32,000 nucleotides of DNA. It comes from Halalkalibacterium halodurans (GTDB lineage Bacteria > Bacillota > Bacilli > Bacillales > Bacillaceae_D). The stretch is from the NCBI RefSeq assembly GCF_004376175.1, contig NZ_SNUY01000015.1, forward strand, positions 1 to 32,000, read 5' to 3'. Positions within the stretch are counted from its first letter, which is position 1, and each line of letters starts with the position of its first letter. The notes below the pieces were generated by a model. That model ran no database searches and had not been told where the DNA came from. It was given only the letters and a program-made list of their open reading frames with translations. A program made the translations under genes and the position numbers. Below are positions 520-19,115 of the stretch, piece by piece.

Positions 520-3212
520 TTATTCAAATCGTAACGTCACGATTTCTTGTGGTCGAACCTCTATCTGTACATTTCCCGTTCCAAGCTTCTCTATTTGTTC
601 TTCTAAAATGGTGCAACGGTAAATCTGTAAAAAGTGCGTAGACTGCACGATTAGCGCTTCGCCCTCACGCTTAGGGTTGAACCAGCGAAGAATCATCCCA
701 CGGCCATCCATTGTCGGCTTACACGCTGTTAATACAAGCCCTTCTCCTGACCATTGGAAAAGGTTTGTTGCATGAGGAAGGGGACCCATGCTTTGTTCTG
801 TTTGGATCACCGTCGGTTCCACGGGGTCATCATAGGCAGCCACATAGACATTTGCCGATAGAACATCCCCTTTATGTGGTAAAAGGACGAATTGCGCTTC
901 ATTTTGTCCAAAACATTGAGCCTCAGGTGTTTCAAACAGACCCCAATCACCAAGTTCTCCGACTGAGCGGAGCAGCGTAACAGCGATGCTATCACTTACA
1001 ATCTCGTATTCATGCAAGCCCTTCGTTGCAATCGTTAGCCCGTACTCCCCATTATCTAAACTGACCAGTCGTTGCATATGGTGATCAAAGGCTGGATTTT
1101 GCCATTTCGGATCTGGTGTATTCGGACGCTCTACGATTTCGTAGATGCTGTCCGCATAATGGTTGCCGCGGGCTCTTTCTACTGGAAAAAGAGCTCTCAT
1201 TCGGTGGTCCTTTGCCGTATTGTCGATGTTCACGTTCACCTTTAATCCTTTTGCTCCTTGTTCTAACGTCAATTCCGTGCGCAGCGTGATGTCCGTTCGT
1301 TCCTTAGATCTACCTGCCTTTCTGTCAGGATGCCACACTAACCGTTCCTGCTCCTCCTTCAATCGTTCGTCAGCTGCCGCTGGAACAGAGAGCGTCTGGC
1401 AAATCTCAACCGTCGCACATAATGAATTGTTTTCAATGATTCGGATCGATGCCTCACACGCCTCAGTCGTATAGCGAACCCCATCAGATGAAGCTTTGAA
1501 CATATATTCATTGCCAATGTCGCCCACATCTTCATATATTCCTAAGTGACGATATTCGAACCCTGTCGTTTTATCAAGAATAGAGTAGCTCCCATTTCGA
1601 TGAATCATCACCTTCATCGCTTCGTTTTCCAGCGTGTTCATAGACGGATCGCCAATCAACTCTTTTCGTGCCTCTGTTTGTTTCTCTTCAACCGGGACAA
1701 GAAAGCCACACTCGTATCCGAGATAAAGGTCAGAATCATATGAAAAGGTGACTTCTAATTCTCTCGCATAATACGGTCGTCTAAATCCGTCTCTTGGCAG
1801 ATCATAACCGAAGCGAACACCTGCATCTTGCACTTCGATAGGAACGCTTCCTTTGTTCGGGAATTCTAGCCGGTATGTCGGCATCACAATCTCTTTCAAG
1901 CGATCGGGAATATGACGAAAATCCATCTCGTCAAAGTAGATTTTTTCATAGCAACTTTGTGACGGACAACTCTCTTTCCAGACGTTCCGTTCGTCTTCAA
2001 CACAACGAGAGGAATAGCCTCCTCTGAATCATGTAAGGTGTTTATTTGGGTAGCGATTTCCTTTCCCTGCTCCGCAATAAATGTCGTCGCTCCGGCCTCT
2101 ACCTTCTCAAACCGCGTCTTCATTTCGCGGTGAACCGCATCAATGCTACAGCCGCAAATACTGTCATGGGGATGGTTTTCCATTAATAGCTTCCAATAAT
2201 ATTCGGAAAAATCACGATGAAGAGATTTGTTTTCAACTAGAAGACCCATCGGTTCCAATACGTTTGTCAAAAGTGTTTGGCAACGATCATTCGCCTGTTT
2301 CAAATAGATTCTCGCTGAAGCTGTATTGACGAGTGTTGACCAACCATCCGTCTTCTGGTTCCGCAACTCCCCTGTAATTTTTTGTAACTCCTTCGGTAGC
2401 TCTTCCTTTATTTGTGTGAGATAATCGTGAAAATTAGAATGCTTAAACGCTACATCGGGAAATAACGTTTCCGCCACTTTAATGGCTTGAGTGACATCCT
2501 TTTGGACTGGCTGATGATCACAGCCGTTCATAAACAATAACTGTGAAGTAGAGGCAAATCTCTCGGCGTCTCTGAGCTTTTTCACCCAAAATGTCTGCGC
2601 CTCGTCTTCGTCCGTTGGAATTTCGTTTCCATTTGAATACCAGTTTGCAAGCAAAATCCCTAATACTTGTGATCCGTCAGGCGCTTCCCAAATTAATTCA
2701 GAAAAGGGCGACGAATAGTCATCGTGCTGTACTTGGTTATTGAACCCCGTCGGCGTCACACCCCTCCCAAAAACCGCCGCACGGATACCTGCTTGTGCTA
2801 ACAATTGGGGCGCCTGACCGTAAATACCAAACGTATCGGGAAAGTAGCCAATTTGCTCTCTTTTCTGTCCAAAAGTCTCCGTATCTTTTATCCCGTACAA
2901 TAGATTTCGTACATTGGCTTCAGCGCTTGTTAAGAAAGCATCCTGCAAAATATACCAAGGGCCGATCACCAATCGACCGTCTTGAATATATTTTCTAACT
3001 TCCGCCTCTTTTTCTGGCCGAATGTTTAAATAGTCTTCGAGCATAATCGTTTGCCCGTCCATATGAAAGCTTCGAAAGTTCGGATCTGTAGCAAATAGCT
3101 CTAACAAGTCATCCATTAGTTGAATTAAATAGTAACGATGGCATTCGAATGGCATGTACCATTCTCGATCCCAATGGGAATGGGAAATAATATGGGCTGT
3201 TTTTTTCATCAT
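520..3212 (-). pseudogene. GH38 alpha-mannosidase, split into two ORFs by a 1-nt frameshift in a homopolymer
   Basis: ORF 1896..3230 has the classic GH38 N-terminus MKKTAHIISHSHWDREWY; the likely start is ATG 3212, after GGAGAGAGAGGA. ORF 520..1926 is the GH38 central/C-terminal part. The C-terminal frame is open upstream of its first ATG. The two frames meet at the run A6 (plus-strand T6, 1941-1946). One extra A would give the continuous reading ...HKVAMKKIYFDEMDFRHIP... Confidence 0.8.
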
Positions 3213-3244
3213 ACAATCCTCTCTCTCCACTAAAGCTGATCCAG

Positions 3245-3859
3245 TTATTCATTTACTCGAAACTGACGAAAACGATTTAATGCCACTTTCATCACCCAAA
3301 AAGCCGGTAGCGTGCCTAGCGCAAAAGGGATTAATCCGGGCATCTGATAAAGTAAAAAACCGATAACCGTTAGCCCGAGACCGATTAAAATATTTTGCTT
3401 CAAACTTATGAGTGTAATAATGAAAGGCTGCCATAAATACTGTTTCACCGTTTGCTCAAAATGGACATAGTACGAAAACATGTAGAAAAACGAAAATACA
3501 TAAATGACAAGACATGTGATAATGACGATCGTACTAATGAGAGCGATGATCCCCTTTAATTGCGTAACCAAATAAAGATCGAAAACTAACAAGGCACCAA
3601 GGAACAGATACACTGAGCCAATTCCGTTCATTTTCCAAAAGTTTATTCTATAAAACGTATGAAATGACTTCCAAATGGGAAGATCTAATTCCCCGTGCAA
3701 CCATCTCCTCGTCGTTGCAAACAATGCTCCTGTTGCAGGAAACAAGCCAAGAACGACGCCCCCTAATAAAATGTGAGCGAGCCACGCCCAATTCAACTGC
3801 ATCATTCGCCAAATCCAAAAACTCGCCTCGGTGAAAAATCCCCCTAAACGATTAATCAT
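3245..3859 (-). CDS. YesL-family (DUF624) integral membrane protein
   Basis: MINRLGGFFTEASFWIWRMMQLNWAWLAHILLGGVVLGLFPATGALFATTRRW is a typical DUF624 N-terminus, followed by several TM segments. The strong RBS GGGGGAGGGG precedes ATG 3859, and the upstream part of the tracked ORF overlaps the ROK gene. The 8-nt overlap with the ROK stop suggests co-translation. Confidence 0.7.
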   Translation of the reverse strand: MINRLGGFFTEASFWIWRMMQLNWAWLAHILLGGVVLGLFPATGALFATTRRWLHGELDLPIWKSFHTFYRINFWKMNGIGSVYLFLGALLVFDLYLVTQLKGIIALISTIVIITCLVIYVFSFFYMFSYYVHFEQTVKQYLWQPFIITLISLKQNILIGLGLTVIGFLLYQMPGLIPFALGTLPAFWVMKVALNRFRQFRVNE

Positions 3860-4760
3860 CGCCCCTCCCCCTTTGATGTTCGTCGAGCCACCGTTTCGCT
3901 GCTCCGAACAATTGAGCCTGATCAAGATGCTCACAGAGAGCCAAGGAAGGCTTTATTGTTGCCTCCTGACGTCCTGCAAAAATGTCAGCCAGCCGTTTCT
4001 CAAGCTCCTTCATAAACCCAGGCTGTCTCGTAATTCCACCGCCTATGAAAATCTTTTCTGGATCCAACATATATTGCAGGTTAAACACACCCACCGCTAA
4101 CGATTGAAAAAAGACGTCGATTGACTCTTGTGCCTTCTTATGGCCTTTCGCCGCTTCCTCAAACGCAAGATATCCCGTCCATCGCTCATCATGAGGGGGT
4201 TCCCCTTTCAGCCGTTTAACGATGGCGACTGACGAGCCGATTTCACTCCACGATTTGGAATCGCCTCTCTCATCTACATTCATGATCGCATAACCGAATT
4301 CGCCACCGTGTAAATGGGCTCCGCGTCGGAGCTTCCCGTCAAGGACAAAAGCGCCACCGATCCCCGTTCCGCACACAATGCAGGCAAATGTGCTCACACC
4401 TTGTGCTGCCCCATTCCATCCTTCGGCGATCGCCGCACAGTTTGCATCATTCTCCATCGCTACAGGAAGTCCATATGTTTCTTCAAGCGTTCGCTTCAAA
4501 TTGTTCTCATGAACAAATTCAACTGCACTAGAACCGAGAACGTCACCAGTGGATGTGACACTTCCCGGACAGCTCATCGCGATGCCGATAATGTTGTAAC
4601 GCTGACTAAACCTTTCATAATATTCATCTACCATCTGACAAAAGATCGGTAAGCTGCTCGGTGTCGGCTGCTCGATTTTTTCAACCAATTGAGCACGGAC
4701 TGAAACGAGTGCCATTTTTGTAAATGTGCCCCCTATATCAATCGTTAACAAGTACGCCAT
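3852..4760 (-). CDS. ROK-family sugar kinase
   Basis: It has the N-terminal ATP-binding motif LLTIDIGGTFTK, plus DANCAAIAE and CGTGIGG and ROK-type glycine-rich blocks. GAGGG lies 6 nt before ATG 4760; ATG 4766 is the alternative start. Confidence 0.8.
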   Translation of the reverse strand: MAYLLTIDIGGTFTKMALVSVRAQLVEKIEQPTPSSLPIFCQMVDEYYERFSQRYNIIGIAMSCPGSVTSTGDVLGSSAVEFVHENNLKRTLEETYGLPVAMENDANCAAIAEGWNGAAQGVSTFACIVCGTGIGGAFVLDGKLRRGAHLHGGEFGYAIMNVDERGDSKSWSEIGSSVAIVKRLKGEPPHDERWTGYLAFEEAAKGHKKAQESIDVFFQSLAVGVFNLQYMLDPEKIFIGGGITRQPGFMKELEKRLADIFAGRQEATIKPSLALCEHLDQAQLFGAAKRWLDEHQRGRGDD

Positions 4761-11976: not shown

Positions 11977-12807
11977 TTATCGATGGATGACTCGATCAAT
12001 ATGGATCGTCAAATAGAGCATTTCTTCGTTTGTCAATTCATAATCGTACTGCTTTTTAATGTATTCTTTAATTTTCTCGGTGCAGGCAAATGAGTCTTTA
12101 TGTTTTTCCTTTACGATATCGAAAAATGTATCATCATCACTGCTTAAAAATGTTCGATTGATTAACCGTTGGCAGAAAAACTTCAAGTGAGTAATAAACC
12201 TGAAGTAGTTTAACGAGTCTTCATCTAAATCTGTGTTAAAATGATATTTAACAATTTTTAGAATGTGCTTCGTTAATTTCGTAATGTTGATCACGTTTGG
12301 CACTTCTTCATTCAACTCGGCATTAACGATATGGAGAGCAATAAACGCAGCTTCATCCTCAGGCAGTGTAATTCCTAGCTTTTTCTCGATAATTTCGATT
12401 GCATGTTGACCGATGGCAAACTCATCTTGGTAAAGCTTACGAATTTCCCAAAGAAGCGCGTTTTTGATTTCATAACCTTTTTTCACCCGTTCAATCGCGA
12501 AGTTTATATGGTCAGTGAGCGCTACATAAATAATGTCATTTAAATCTTTTTTATAGGCCATCTTCGCATGTTGAATGATTTGTTCCGTTACTTCCATCAC
12601 TTCAATCGGTACTTCGCGCAGGAGGGTACGAAACCGCTCGGTCGTCTCTTGACTGTTTAACGTAAAGATCTTTTCGATTTTCGTCTTGTCTACAGGATCA
12701 CCAGATTTCGCTTGAAAACCAATACCTTTCCCCATAATAATCAATTCTTTTTGCTGTTCATTGATTACGCTAATGACGTTATTGTTTATAATTTTTGCGA
12801 TTTTCAC
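11977..12807 (-). CDS. BglG/LicT/SacY-family PRD-containing transcription antiterminator
   Basis: The N-terminal CAT domain is KIAKIINNNVISVINEQQKELIIMGKGIGFQ, followed by two PRD-like halves (IALTDHINFAIER..., FITHLKFFCQR...). The GTG start at 12807 follows GGTGAGG. Confidence 0.85.
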   Translation of the reverse strand: MKIAKIINNNVISVINEQQKELIIMGKGIGFQAKSGDPVDKTKIEKIFTLNSQETTERFRTLLREVPIEVMEVTEQIIQHAKMAYKKDLNDIIYVALTDHINFAIERVKKGYEIKNALLWEIRKLYQDEFAIGQHAIEIIEKKLGITLPEDEAAFIALHIVNAELNEEVPNVINITKLTKHILKIVKYHFNTDLDEDSLNYFRFITHLKFFCQRLINRTFLSSDDDTFFDIVKEKHKDSFACTEKIKEYIKKQYDYELTNEEMLYLTIHIDRVIHR

Positions 12808-12987
12808 TGACCTCACCTGCTCTCAAGTCATTCTCACCATCTACCTAATCTCCATGTTAAAAGGGTTACAGAAAGCGTTTTGCCTTTAACTTTTCCTCAT
12901 TATACATCATTTCCTTTTTAAGACCTAGTTCTTTAGTGAATCGTAAGACCTATTAATCAAAACGATCATTCATAAGATTTTCCCAAT

Positions 12988-15464: not shown

Positions 15465-16061
15465 TTACATCAGTAGTTGAAATGGCTGCTCTAGCATGGA
15501 TTTCACGTCTGTTAAAAAGGCCGCCGCCGGAGCTCCATCAATGACACGATGATCGAATGATAAACTAGCAGTCATCATCGGGCGAAGCTCAATCTGGCCG
15601 TCTATCCCTACCGGCTTTTCTTGAATTCTACCTACACCTAAAATCGCGGATTCCGGTTGATTGATAACTGGTGTAAAGACGTCAATTGCATACATTCCTA
15701 AATTGCTGATCGTAAACGTGCCACCGCTCATCATTTCTTGTGAAAGTCGATTGTCTCTAGCTGCCATAGCTACTGTTTTACACTCGTTTGTTAATTGGGC
15801 CAGTCCTTTTTTGTCTACATGCTTAACGACTGGGACGACCAATCCTCTTTCAACTGCTACGGCTAAACCGATATGCACGTCTTCATGGTAGACGATTTCA
15901 TCCTCAAAGAAAGAGGCATTAATGGCAGGGTGACTCATTAGCGCGTGAGCAACCGCCTTCATCACAATTTCTGTATAGGACAAACGGTAGCCTGTCTGTT
16001 GTTCAATCATCCCTAACAGTTGTGAACGGATTAACGCATGGCAAAGAATTCTATGCCGCAT
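15465..16061 (-). pseudogene. 2-oxoacid dehydrogenase E2 acyltransferase, catalytic domain only (5'-truncated)
   Basis: Only the C-terminal catalytic domain is present (SFDHRVIDGAPAAAFL active-site block, GGTFTISNLG). The lipoyl and E3-binding domains, and any E1 genes, are absent. The reading frame collides with an opposite-strand gene fragment at about 16022-16061. Confidence 0.75.
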
Positions 16062-16507
16062 TGCAACAAGAAAAACCGGAAGCTACAGACGTGATGTACG
16101 AAGGCTTCATGACGTATTTAGACGTACACACAGCCAATCAGCTCCTATTATTTATCGGGCTTTTTATCGCGTTGTTATTTTTCCTTGCCAATGGAAGTCT
16201 CATCTACTTTAAGCTGTTTACTGAATTAGAGGACGATCGGCAAATGTTTTTGATTTTAAGGAAAGTCGGCATGTCGGATCAAGAGATACGACGGGTTTTG
16301 ACGATACAATTGGCCATTCTCTTTTTTCTTCCTGTTCTTGTTGGGACGATCCATACGTTATTTGCCTTTAATAGCGCCCGTGCCGCTTTGTTTGCATCAA
16401 CCGTTTGGCAAACTGGTTCGTTTGCAATTGTCCTCTATTTCCTGTTCCAACTCATCTATTTTCTTCTCGCTCGGACGGTTTATACGAAAAAAGTACTTCG
16501 CTCGTAA
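16022..16507 (+). pseudogene. BceB/FtsX-family ABC transporter permease, C-terminal fragment (5'-truncated)
   Basis: The 161-aa ORF matches only the last FtsX module of these permeases (about 620-650 aa from memory): FKLFTELEDDRQMFLILRKVGMSDQEIRRVL, then three TM segments. There is no upstream ATPase gene, no RBS and no N-terminal TM segments. Confidence 0.65.
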
Positions 16508-16603: not shown

Positions 16604-17233
16604 TTAATGTGTGGAAGGGGATTTCCTCTTCATTAAATCATTCACTTTCTTGTAATCTTCGCAAGTATCCACATCCACAAGGACCCCTTGATCATGAACA
16701 GGAATAAGCATCCTCTCCAATTCCTCCATGAGTGTCTTTCCTCCTTTATCTCCGTTCACAGCTGAGCAATCCAGAGCGTGAATATTTCCCCAGTATACCG
16801 GATGCCCCTCTTTCTTCTCATACATGGGGCGAACAATAAAGGGCTCTTCTTGAACACGAGTTATCCCTTCATTCAACACTATGTTAACTGTTTCCTTTTC
16901 GATCAATGGTTGATCGGCAAGAAACATCATCACGGCGTCCCCATACTGTCTTGCTTGCTCCATCGCTAGCTTAAACGATGTGCTCTGTCCTTGCTTATAT
17001 TGGTCATTGACCAGCCATTGGACTCGCTTATCTTCCACTTGAATCATCTTCATTACTATGTCCGCCTGATGACCGACGATGACAAAAATGTGTTGAAATG
17101 GGTGGTTGCTCACTTGATCAATTACGTACTTTAGCATGTATGTCCCTTGTATTTTGGCTAACTGTTTCATTTCGTTCATTCTCGTCGATGTGCCTGCAGC
17201 TAAAATGGCGGCGCTAACCGATGGTTTCATCAT
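16604..17233 (-). CDS. MocA/PucB-like nucleotidyltransferase (molybdenum cofactor cytidylyltransferase family)
   Basis: The N-terminus AAILAAGTSTRMNEMKQL (NTP_transf_3 G-rich loop) and the about 200-aa size fit the family. Confidence 0.65.
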   Translation of the reverse strand: MMKPSVSAAILAAGTSTRMNEMKQLAKIQGTYMLKYVIDQVSNHPFQHIFVIVGHQADIVMKMIQVEDKRVQWLVNDQYKQGQSTSFKLAMEQARQYGDAVMMFLADQPLIEKETVNIVLNEGITRVQEEPFIVRPMYEKKEGHPVYWGNIHALDCSAVNGDKGGKTLMEELERMLIPVHDQGVLVDVDTCEDYKKVNDLMKRKSPSTH

Positions 17234-17512: not shown

Positions 17513-18850
17513 TTACGTTAACGCAGGCATTCGTTTTAGCAACCGTTCGATGGAACGATCCGACTCCCGAAGAACGATGGCTGGATCGATCGTTTTCATC
17601 ACCCGATTTTCCATGACGACGCGGCCATTAATAATCGTCGTCTCCACATCTGCTCGCGTCGCTGAATACACAATTCGTGAAATCGGGTCCACATCAAACG
17701 ACGGGTACGTATGAAAATGACGTAAATTCAAAATCGCAAGGTCTGCCTTTTTTCCTACCTCTAGGCTTCCGATCTCATGATCCATTCCGATGGCTCTTGC
17801 CCCGTTAATTGTCGCCATCTTAAAAACTGTACGAGCATCCATTGCCGTTGGACCGTGCACCGGCTTTTGAATTAATGCAGCGAGTCTCATTTCATTAAAC
17901 ATATCTAAATTGTTGTTGCACGGAGCGCCGTCCGCTCCTAAACTAACGGGGATTGCTTGATCTAACAAACTGGGAATGTCCGCGATTCCGGATGCAAGCT
18001 TTAAATTAGATCCTGGGCAATGGCTCACATGAATACCTCGTTCTTTGATGATCCGTTTTTCGTTTTCACTCAACCAAATGCAGTGTGCTAATATGAGCCG
18101 TTCGTTCGCTAAGCCAACATGATCAAGGTATTCGATGTTTCGCATCCCCGTCTCCTGTTGGACCATTTCAATTTCTCCGCGATTTTCAGAGGCATGGGTG
18201 TGAACATGGACTTGATAATGGGCTGAAAGCTTCCCCACCTCACGCAAAAGCTCCTCGGTACAAGAGACGACAAAGCGAGGTGAAAACGCATAACGTATTC
18301 GACCTCCATCAAAGCTGTGCCACTCTTCAAGCAGTTCGATACTTTTTTCAATCGACTGAGCCGTTTTCTCTTGCAATGGGAGCGGCACTTCCTCCCCTTT
18401 ATCCATCATCACCTTACCTGATATCGCGCGAATGCCGCTTGAAGCAATCGCTGCAAACGCAGAGTCTGTATGATGAACGGTTTCCATATCCACGATGGTC
18501 GTCGTTCCACTTTTGATGAGCTCACCGATACCTAGCAAGGCAGAATAATAGATTGACTCAGAATCATGCGCGGCTTCAAGCGGCCAAATTCGCTTTTTGA
18601 GCCAATCCATTAATTCTAAGTCGTCGCCCTTCCCGCGAAAAAGCGTCTGACATAGATGAATGTGCGTTTGAACAAATCCAGGAATCACCGTCCGTCCAGT
18701 GGCATCAATCACTTTCTCGACTCCCTCTTCGCTTAAGTCTTGACCGATCGCACAAATGAGCCCATCCTTAATCAATAGATCACCGTAAACAATGTCCTCC
18801 TTTGGATTCATGGTTACCATCTCTGCCTGTTTAATTAGGATCGTTGTCAT
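17513..18850 (-). CDS. Amidohydrolase-superfamily nucleobase/nucleoside deaminase (cog0402: guanine / 8-oxoguanine / MTA-SAH deaminase / chlorohydrolase group)
   Basis: The metal ligands are PGFVQTHIHLCQ (HxH), HVHTHASE, AHCIW and GADGA. The size is 445 aa. The RBS GAGGAGG lies 7 nt before the ATG. Substrate cannot be assigned from sequence alone. Confidence 0.8.
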   Translation of the reverse strand: MTTILIKQAEMVTMNPKEDIVYGDLLIKDGLICAIGQDLSEEGVEKVIDATGRTVIPGFVQTHIHLCQTLFRGKGDDLELMDWLKKRIWPLEAAHDSESIYYSALLGIGELIKSGTTTIVDMETVHHTDSAFAAIASSGIRAISGKVMMDKGEEVPLPLQEKTAQSIEKSIELLEEWHSFDGGRIRYAFSPRFVVSCTEELLREVGKLSAHYQVHVHTHASENRGEIEMVQQETGMRNIEYLDHVGLANERLILAHCIWLSENEKRIIKERGIHVSHCPGSNLKLASGIADIPSLLDQAIPVSLGADGAPCNNNLDMFNEMRLAALIQKPVHGPTAMDARTVFKMATINGARAIGMDHEIGSLEVGKKADLAILNLRHFHTYPSFDVDPISRIVYSATRADVETTIINGRVVMENRVMKTIDPAIVLRESDRSIERLLKRMPALT

Positions 18851-18911
18851 ATAAAAGCCTCCTCAAGCATTCGCTTTCTAAATAGCCAATACATCATGTT
18901 CCTCAACGCGC

Positions 18912-19016
18912 AAAAAACCTAGCCACAAAAGAACACATTAACTGCATTCTTTTCGTAGCTAGGTATTTACGGTACCTGTAGAGACCCTCATCCCATATTG
19001 AGAGGATATACGAAGA
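18912..19016 (-). promoter_or_regulatory. Purine (guanine-family) riboswitch aptamer plus overlapping intrinsic terminator (ON-type expression platform)
   Basis: The minus-strand RNA is CUUCGUAUAUCCUCUCAAUAUGGGAUGAGGGUCUCUACAGGUACCGUAAAUACCUAGCUACGAAAAG. P1 is UUCGUA/UACGAA, L2 is AAUAUGG, J2/3 is GUCUCUAC and L3 is CCGUAAA, all cores of the purine riboswitch. A C immediately precedes the 3' strand of P1. It is followed by the terminator CCUAGCUACGAAAAGAA-N13-UUCUUUUGUGGCUAGG-UUUUUU, whose 5' arm is built from aptamer nucleotides. Confidence 0.85.
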
Positions 19017-19115
19017 GTGTTGAGCTCGATTAAGTTACCGTTAGTATATGATGATTTTAGGCGAGAAACCATTCATTTGTAAGGTAACTTATCAGCATTC
19101 TTCAACCCGTTTCCG

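Follow-up and report, generated by a model that had tools for sequence, protein, structure and literature searches.

The question raised by this locus is what a purine riboswitch with an altered binding-pocket junction senses, and in which direction it switches the deaminase gene behind it. The locus lies in a 32,000-nt stretch of DNA (hereafter, the window) from Halalkalibacterium (formerly Bacillus) halodurans, and the encoded deaminase is 99% identical to a protein of that species. A first-pass annotation made by reading the sequence had assigned the element to the guanine family, and suggested that it either belongs to the 8-oxoguanine class or is another variant, sensing some other ligand.

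A search with Rfam/Infernal matched RF00167 (Purine) at 19033..18936 of the minus strand, covering the full model (1–102) with 54.8 bits (E = 6.4e-07; the gathering score of the family is 37 bits). This was the sole Rfam family matched in the window. The aptamer was resolved into the following parts.

19017..18949, minus strand: guanine-type purine riboswitch aptamer, P1-P2-P3 three-way junction (RF00167 and sequence reading)
19017..19009 with 18957..18949, minus strand: P1, containing one C·A mismatch (sequence reading)
19008..19006, minus strand: J1/2, UAU (sequence reading)
19005..19000 with 18992..18986, minus strand: P2, with U 18990 bulged (sequence reading)
18999..18993, minus strand: L2, AAUAUGG (exact motif match)
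18985..18978, minus strand: J2/3, GUCUCUAC, of full length (8 nt), with U47 at 18984 (Infernal, high posterior probability)
18977..18973 with 18965..18961, minus strand: P3, AGGUA/UACCU, 5 bp (sequence reading)
18972..18966, minus strand: L3, CCGUAAA (exact motif match)
18960..18958, minus strand: J3/1, A-G-C, comprising an extra or unpaired A72, G73 and the discriminator C74 at 18958 (sequence and Infernal)

In the Infernal alignment, J2/3 matched the consensus GUUUCUAC column for column, which indicates that U47 and U51 are present. All four ligand-contacting nucleotides (U22, U47, U51, and C74) are in place, and C74 is that of the guanine type. C54 is deleted and positions 72/73/74 are A/G/C, and the canonical C54-G72 pair and A73 are hence absent from the window aptamer. 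This alignment to RF00167 was the check named by the first-pass annotation, and it showed that the manual reading was not off by one; the A-G-C junction, the short P3 and the bulged U of P2 were all seen in both the sequence and the alignment. The C54-G72 pair and A73 are no strict defining feature of the guanine-I class, because conservation of position 73 reaches only ~90% and good binding is known for LM-pbuG, a natural G73 aptamer (PMC2018637), and G73 occurs in at least 120 species as described below. The sequence of the aptamer and terminator was identical in six independent H. halodurans assemblies encoding the same protein, between which the leader differed at only one base located far upstream. 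This indicates that the odd P3 and J3/1 are not a sequencing error. The element is a guanine-I-type purine riboswitch, as the guanine-family assignment had held.

The direction of switching was examined by folding the leader, which gave the following features around and upstream of the start codon.

19083..19054, minus strand: promoter-like site, −35 CTTACA, 18-nt spacer, −10 TAAAAT (consensus scan, 9/12 matches)
18963..18918, minus strand: intrinsic terminator hairpin of ~20 pairs, 5′ arm CCUAGCUACGAAAAGAAUGCA (RNAfold, −25.6 kcal/mol)
18917..18912, minus strand: U6 tract of the terminator (sequence)
18864..18858, minus strand: Shine-Dalgarno GAGGAGG, 7 nt 5′ of the ATG (sequence)

The terminator hairpin runs from CCUAGCUACGAAAAGAAUGCA to UGUGUUCUUUUGUGGCUAGG in the minimum-free-energy fold. 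Its 5′ arm is made up of J3/1, the 3′ strands of P3 and P1 on either side of it, and flanking bases. Since this strand is common to both folds, the aptamer and terminator cannot coexist, and a separate antiterminator is unneeded. The energy of the whole leader was −37.7 kcal/mol for the terminator conformer and −16.6 kcal/mol when the aptamer helices were enforced. This suggests that termination is the default, and that read-through should follow when the ligand is captured during transcription. The terminator and U6 tract reported earlier were hence real, while the stem is not of 16 bp but of ~20 pairs, and the ON logic that had been deduced from a sole terminator sharing P3-3′, J3/1 and P1-3′ with the aptamer agrees with these folds and energies. 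From the fold overlap, the window riboswitch is predicted to act as an ON switch, in vivo as well. A simple terminator scan reported no terminator in this leader because the stem is long. Promoter-like sites were no commoner in the consensus scan than expected by chance, and the evidence for the site at 19083..19054 is weak.

A guanine aptamer with such a junction has been described. Mulhbacher and Lafontaine analyzed 89 guanine aptamers in 2007 (PMC2018637), including one from B. halodurans that was named BH-ssnA after the downstream SsnA-like aminohydrolase, and in which an additional nucleotide directly precedes position 73 and P3 is unstable. As the species, gene type, extra nucleotide and unstable P3 all fit, the window element is very probably BH-ssnA. 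BH-ssnA was placed in the weakest-binding group, with an apparent KD for guanine of 414 ± 387 nM, a value with a very large error, in comparison with 4.7 nM for xpt (~100-fold weaker). Guanine induced structural modulation of BH-ssnA, whereas no significant modulation by 1 µM adenine, xanthine, or hypoxanthine was observed in in-line probing, and the binding of 2-aminopurine (2AP) was undetectable. An A73G substitution in the xpt context also abolished 2AP binding (PMC2018637). It is therefore very probable that both the odd junction and the guanine selectivity of the window aptamer were already published in 2007, in a paper that treats guanine riboswitches as OFF switches and contains no discussion of ON wiring. 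The non-canonical J3/1 is known natural variation and not a new ligand class.

The gene under control and its 3′ neighbor were assigned as follows.

18850..17513, minus strand: 445-aa cog0402 amidohydrolase regulated by the riboswitch (NCBIfam NF005557, Pfam Amidohydro_1)
17233..16604, minus strand: MocA/YgfJ/PucB-like molybdenum-cofactor nucleotidyltransferase (TIGR03310, TIGR03202, Pfam NTP_transf_3)

These matches bear out the earlier assignment of the regulated gene to the cog0402 amidohydrolases. The enzyme scored 740.7 bits against NF005557 (PRK07228, cut-off 522), the NCBIfam equivalog for “5′-deoxyadenosine deaminase”, and PGAP gives it the same name. Its scores against NF006055 (8-oxoguanine deaminase; 295.9 bits, cut-off 532) and TIGR02967 (guanine deaminase; 264 bits, cut-off 375) were below the respective cut-offs, and its SsnA matches were also sub-threshold. 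A sequence search of the PDB gave MTA/SAH deaminases as the nearest solved structures and 8-oxoG deaminase as slightly more distant; the enzyme is about equally far from both, and this search favors neither substrate. In other H. halodurans strains, the genes for the FAD and Mo subunits of xanthine dehydrogenase (XDH) lie directly 3′ of the deaminase. The Domibacillus orthologue adjoins pucR, OHCU decarboxylase, HIU hydrolase, and xdhC, and the Geobacillus orthologue adjoins a xanthine permease and XDH. This purine-catabolic context and the C74 riboswitch favor a guanine deaminase feeding XDH, which is probably what the 445-aa enzyme is. The automatic name “5′-deoxyadenosine deaminase” is probably over-propagated or wrong for this Bacillaceae/Paenibacillaceae protein. 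A guanine-deaminating subgroup of the Tm0936-family deaminases was reportedly described by Hitchcock et al. in 2013, which serves here as background and not as evidence.

In the window itself, the next gene encodes the MocA/PucB-like protein, which scored 136.8 bits with TIGR03310 and 72.8 bits with TIGR03202 (pucB), both below the cut-offs. No terminator was found in the 280-nt spacer between the deaminase and this gene, and the two are possibly co-transcribed. E. coli ssnA likewise adjoins a ygfJ/mocA-like gene, and this neighbor and the sub-threshold SsnA matches are in keeping with the identification as BH-ssnA. Two of the other H. halodurans loci collected (L122 and L124) diverge from the window right after the deaminase stop (position 4346 onward in these loci; 17506 in the window), where genes for the FAD-binding and Mo-binding subunits of XDH replace the MocA/PucB-like gene. 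The riboswitch-controlled unit is therefore strain-dependent.

The significance of G73 was examined by a pattern scan for purine aptamers carrying this base, using one genome per species. G73 purine aptamers were found in at least 120 species, including Listeria loci that match the published G73 of LM-pbuG. Among the matches listed, the genes behind these aptamers were mostly those of pbuG-like permeases, xpt, purE, purL, guaA, purC, and adenine deaminase (ade), and deaminase orthologues were also present. As G73 is common before ordinary genes of the guanine regulon, it does not by itself signal a new ligand. The scan selects G73 by design and is uninformative on the share of deaminase leaders carrying A73, for which gene-centered look-ups are partly corrective. 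The comparison of nearest-neighbor aptamers is only suggestive, as its comparison set is made up of G73 aptamers alone. A spurious ORF in each of two high-GC Paenibacillus loci (L019 and L045), which arose from naive ORF calling, was left out.

Deaminases of 75–80% identity obtained by the gene-centered look-ups, combined with the scan matches, provided us with 11 orthologous leaders, from Halalkalibacterium, Halalkalibacter (4), Domibacillus, Niallia, Alkalicoccobacillus, and Paenibacillus (3). Every one of them matched the Purine family (55–85 bits) and possessed U47 and G73-C74, while the canonical C54-G72 pair occurred in none (0/11). The base of P3 varied between U-A, U·G, C·A, A·G, and the missing 5′ base of the window; a MAFFT alignment of the leaders mis-registered this base and the U47 gap. 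Conservation of the A-G-C junction among homologous leaders, a point raised by the first-pass annotation, hence held for G73-C74 (11/11). In all 11 leaders, the first base of the terminator 5′ arm is either G73 or lies a few bases before it, which indicates that the ON wiring is conserved. In every orthologue, the terminator stem includes a G-C pair made by G73; this pair closes the stem directly before the U tract in 6/11 leaders, and the stem is longer in the others. G73 may thus be favored by the design of the terminator instead of the choice of ligand. No aptamer was found for the deaminase orthologues of Geobacillus, Bacillus solitudinis, and Metabacillus.

Several further observations were made on these relatives. 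The leader of Alkalicoccobacillus gibsonii (L136, ~3841..3941) carries C53G (J2/3 GUUUCUAG) and L3 CCUUAAA; it still scores 55 bits with an ON terminator, and is either a drifting or a compensated copy. A G73 purine aptamer was also located 44 nt 5′ of a guanine deaminase gene in a Peptostreptococcaceae MAG (L008, reverse strand, ~1644). The enzyme is a genuine guanine deaminase by its score of 382 bits with TIGR02967, and this locus is a precedent for such an enzyme behind a G73 purine riboswitch. In its minimum-free-energy fold, the Shine-Dalgarno region is taken up by pairing with the 5′ strand of P1, suggesting that guanine deaminase is switched ON here at the level of translation. Among the matches listed, a COG2509-like FAD-dependent protein of ~480 aa without an NCBIfam match is encoded behind 18 of the G73 purine riboswitches (L003, L018, L026, L063, L066, L067, L083, L086, L094, L095, L103, L108, L118, and L119, with the Clostridium loci L009, L010, L013, and L023). 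When six of these leaders from Brevibacillus and Paenibacillus were folded, the 5′ arm of the terminator was again composed of P3-3′, J3/1, and P1-3′, and they therefore look like guanine-type ON switches.

Comparison with the known purine-sensing RNAs places the window element as follows. It shares with guanine-I (xpt) the three-way junction, the L2 and L3 motifs, and U22/U47/U51/C74, and differs from it in G73 for A73, in the absence of C54 and of the C54-G72 pair, and in the unpaired A72. The usual guanine-I riboswitches are OFF switches of biosynthetic and transport genes, whereas the window one is predicted to be an ON switch, with P1-3′ serving as the terminator 5′ arm, of a catabolic gene. 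In this respect it resembles pbuE (ydhL), where stabilization of P1 by the ligand deprives an intrinsic terminator of its 5′ arm and turns expression ON, although pbuE has U74 and senses adenine and the window has C74. An adenine riboswitch (U74) was rejected on the basis of the C at 18958. Xanthine-II, which has U51G and a two-nucleotide insertion in J2/3, was rejected as U51 is present and the insertion is missing. Guanine-II is associated with PRT genes, is predicted to be an ON switch of Paenibacillaceae/Bacillota, and rejects xanthine and hypoxanthine (PMC9295807). Its structure (PMC12445698) has G63 at the equivalent of A73, the same base as in the window, together with an A inserted in J2/3 and a J3/1 insertion (C59..A61-G62) that leads to a C40-G62 pair and two non-canonical pairs. 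The window aptamer differs from it in its 8-nt J2/3, in one extra J3/1 A that is unable to pair with C53, and in its gene association. With J2/3 of canonical length, a single extra A, and no G to pair with C53, guanine-II was also rejected.

The 8-oxoguanine (8-oxoG) riboswitch (Hamal Dhakal et al. 2023, PMC10556655) requires closer comparison. This class has lost U47, occurs exclusively with 8-oxoG deaminase genes in Paenibacillaceae, and is an ON switch whose terminator overlaps P1 and P3; it prefers 8-oxoG ~10-fold over guanine, which is bound as a non-cognate ligand with a KD of 351 nM (PMC10556655). In the cryoEM numbering, its J2/3 reads C32-N33-C34-U35-A36 and is one nucleotide shorter than that of guanine-I (PMC12982123). 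A metagenome scan for the U47-less pattern recovered three genuine leaders of this type on metagenome contigs (L139 and L146, which are identical, and L149). They exhibited J2/3 GCUCUAC (7 nt), U54, and A73-C74 as in canonical aptamers, and their terminators share sequence with P3 and P1. All three precede an 8-oxoG deaminase gene of NF006055; the one behind L139 scored 597 bits with this model, and its product is 32% identical to the window protein. Rfam 15 still calls these leaders “Purine” (54–59 bits), and no separate or better-scoring family is therefore reported for them.

It was on such grounds that the window riboswitch could be thought to sense 8-oxoG and to turn on an 8-oxoG deaminase. 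Both are C74 derivatives of guanine-I found in Bacillales, both have the ON architecture and precede a deaminase of the cog0402 superfamily, and in both position 48 is C and position 54, at the foot of P3, is not; the weak guanine affinity reported for BH-ssnA would also suit this idea. The overlap of the terminator with P1 and P3 is, however, common to other ON purine riboswitches and non-diagnostic. The window retains U47, whose loss defines the class, in an 8-nt J2/3 (GUCUCUAC) followed by A-G-C, in contrast to GCUCUAC and A73-C74 in the recovered leaders. The gene directly downstream is of NF005557 and not an 8-oxoG deaminase gene, scoring 296 bits with NF006055 against the cut-off of 532. 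The host is one of the Bacillaceae instead of the Paenibacillaceae, and the neighboring XDH genes fit xanthine and not urate as the product. Membership of the 8-oxoG class was hence rejected on the basis of U47, the A-G-C J3/1, and the NF005557 gene, and we regard the suggestion as extremely unlikely. For 8-oxoG as a ligand of a BH-ssnA-like aptamer, a small residual possibility is left, as the ligands in PMC2018637 were other purines. A broader form of the idea is that the deaminase lineage with G73, no C54-G72 pair, and ON wiring is a specificity variant, for which guanine is a weak surrogate of a guanine derivative or another purine. G73 and the disrupted 54-72 pair in all 11 leaders are consistent with this, as are the G at the equivalent position of guanine-II and xanthine-II, the changed specificity that results there from junction alterations beyond the pocket (PMC12445698), and the loss of 2AP binding upon A73G in xpt. 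The substrate of the enzyme is deduced from context, and the guanine KD of BH-ssnA, ~100-fold weaker than that of xpt, has a large error and is close to the 351 nM of the 8-oxoG riboswitch for guanine, so a better ligand than guanine is conceivable. Against it, the ligand is contacted by four canonical nucleotides, ordinary guanine-regulated genes are frequently preceded by G73 aptamers and the natural G73 aptamer LM-pbuG binds normally, BH-ssnA responded to guanine but not to 1 µM xanthine, hypoxanthine, or adenine, and the P3 base is unconserved in the lineage, contrary to what would be expected of a new structured element in the pocket; a weak KD is also what suits a catabolic ON switch. 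This form is unlikely, and the further-variant claim of the first-pass annotation is weakened by the commonness of G73 and the guanine binding of BH-ssnA (PMC2018637).

Similarly improbable is the evolutionary version, in which the G73/non-C54-G72 ON riboswitches before NF005557-type amidohydrolases are a separate lineage that prefers a guanine derivative (e.g., 8-oxoG or a damaged or modified purine), which would also be the substrate of the enzyme, and from which the 8-oxoG class may have arisen through loss of U47. In Bacillaceae and Paenibacillaceae, riboswitches of a similar kind are carried by COG2509-like FAD proteins and by XDH genes. It could also be supposed that the aptamer is decaying, being a poor binder with its extra A and weak P3, so that the leader is mainly a constitutive attenuator with no physiological switching. 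Its Rfam score is the lowest among the orthologous leaders (54.8 versus 55–85 bits), P3 has 5 bp, P1 a mismatch, and P2 a bulge, BH-ssnA fell in the weakest-binding group in 2007, and three orthologues have no aptamer altogether. We consider this very unlikely, since the sequence is identical in 6 assemblies, the pocket and loop-loop residues are all intact, guanine-induced structural modulation was published for BH-ssnA, and a terminator of −25.6 kcal/mol without relief would silence a conserved, intact gene.

Three observations were made elsewhere in the window. Between 21850 and 16029 its gene order and sequence (99.7–99.9% identity) follow those of three further H. halodurans assemblies, from which it diverges near 16029 inside an FtsX-type ABC permease gene (region 15465..16507). 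There, a truncated permease ORF (16022..16507, plus strand) abuts a truncated E2 acyltransferase ORF containing only the catalytic domain (15465..16061, minus strand), and the breakpoint is either a strain-specific rearrangement/deletion or an assembly join. A GH38 alpha-mannosidase (520..3230, minus strand) is split into two overlapping ORFs, with the N-terminal and middle domains in 1896..3230 and the C-terminal ones in 520..1926, suggesting a frameshift or a pseudogene. A gene for a BglG/LicT-type PRD antiterminator with CAT_RBD and PRD domains is located at 11977..12816 (minus strand).

The best explanation, which we hold to be likely, is that this guanine-I riboswitch, very probably BH-ssnA, acts under kinetic control to turn ON the transcription of a gene for a probable guanine deaminase. 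The aptamer, pocket, terminator overlap, conservation, and gene family come from the present analysis, and guanine binding comes from the literature; we infer the identity with BH-ssnA, the ON behavior in vivo, and the substrate of the enzyme. Without ligand, the nascent RNA would fold into the far more stable terminator, and transcription would stop at U6. When guanine is abundant, it would pair with C74 in the three-way junction and stabilize P1 and P3, which would withhold the 5′ arm from the terminator and allow the polymerase to read into the amidohydrolase gene. The enzyme, most likely a guanine deaminase, would then supply xanthine to xanthine dehydrogenase. Such a circuit would be substrate-induced purine catabolism, with the low guanine affinity (~0.4 µM) setting a high threshold, and G73 and the lost C54-G72 pair would be lineage features of an ON-switch family instead of markers of a new ligand.

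The riboswitch itself is of little discovery value, given that a paper of 2007 very probably already covers its aptamer, odd junction, and selectivity for guanine. The additions made here are modest, namely the ON wiring and G73 conserved in 11 leaders, and the enzyme as a probable guanine deaminase. The apparent tie of G73 to the design of the terminator calls for caution in variant-hunting screens that flag any junction change. For the organism and its relatives, this is a clear, conserved case of a guanine-I aptamer used as a transcriptional ON switch for catabolism, in which the low affinity of the aptamer fits a high threshold of induction.
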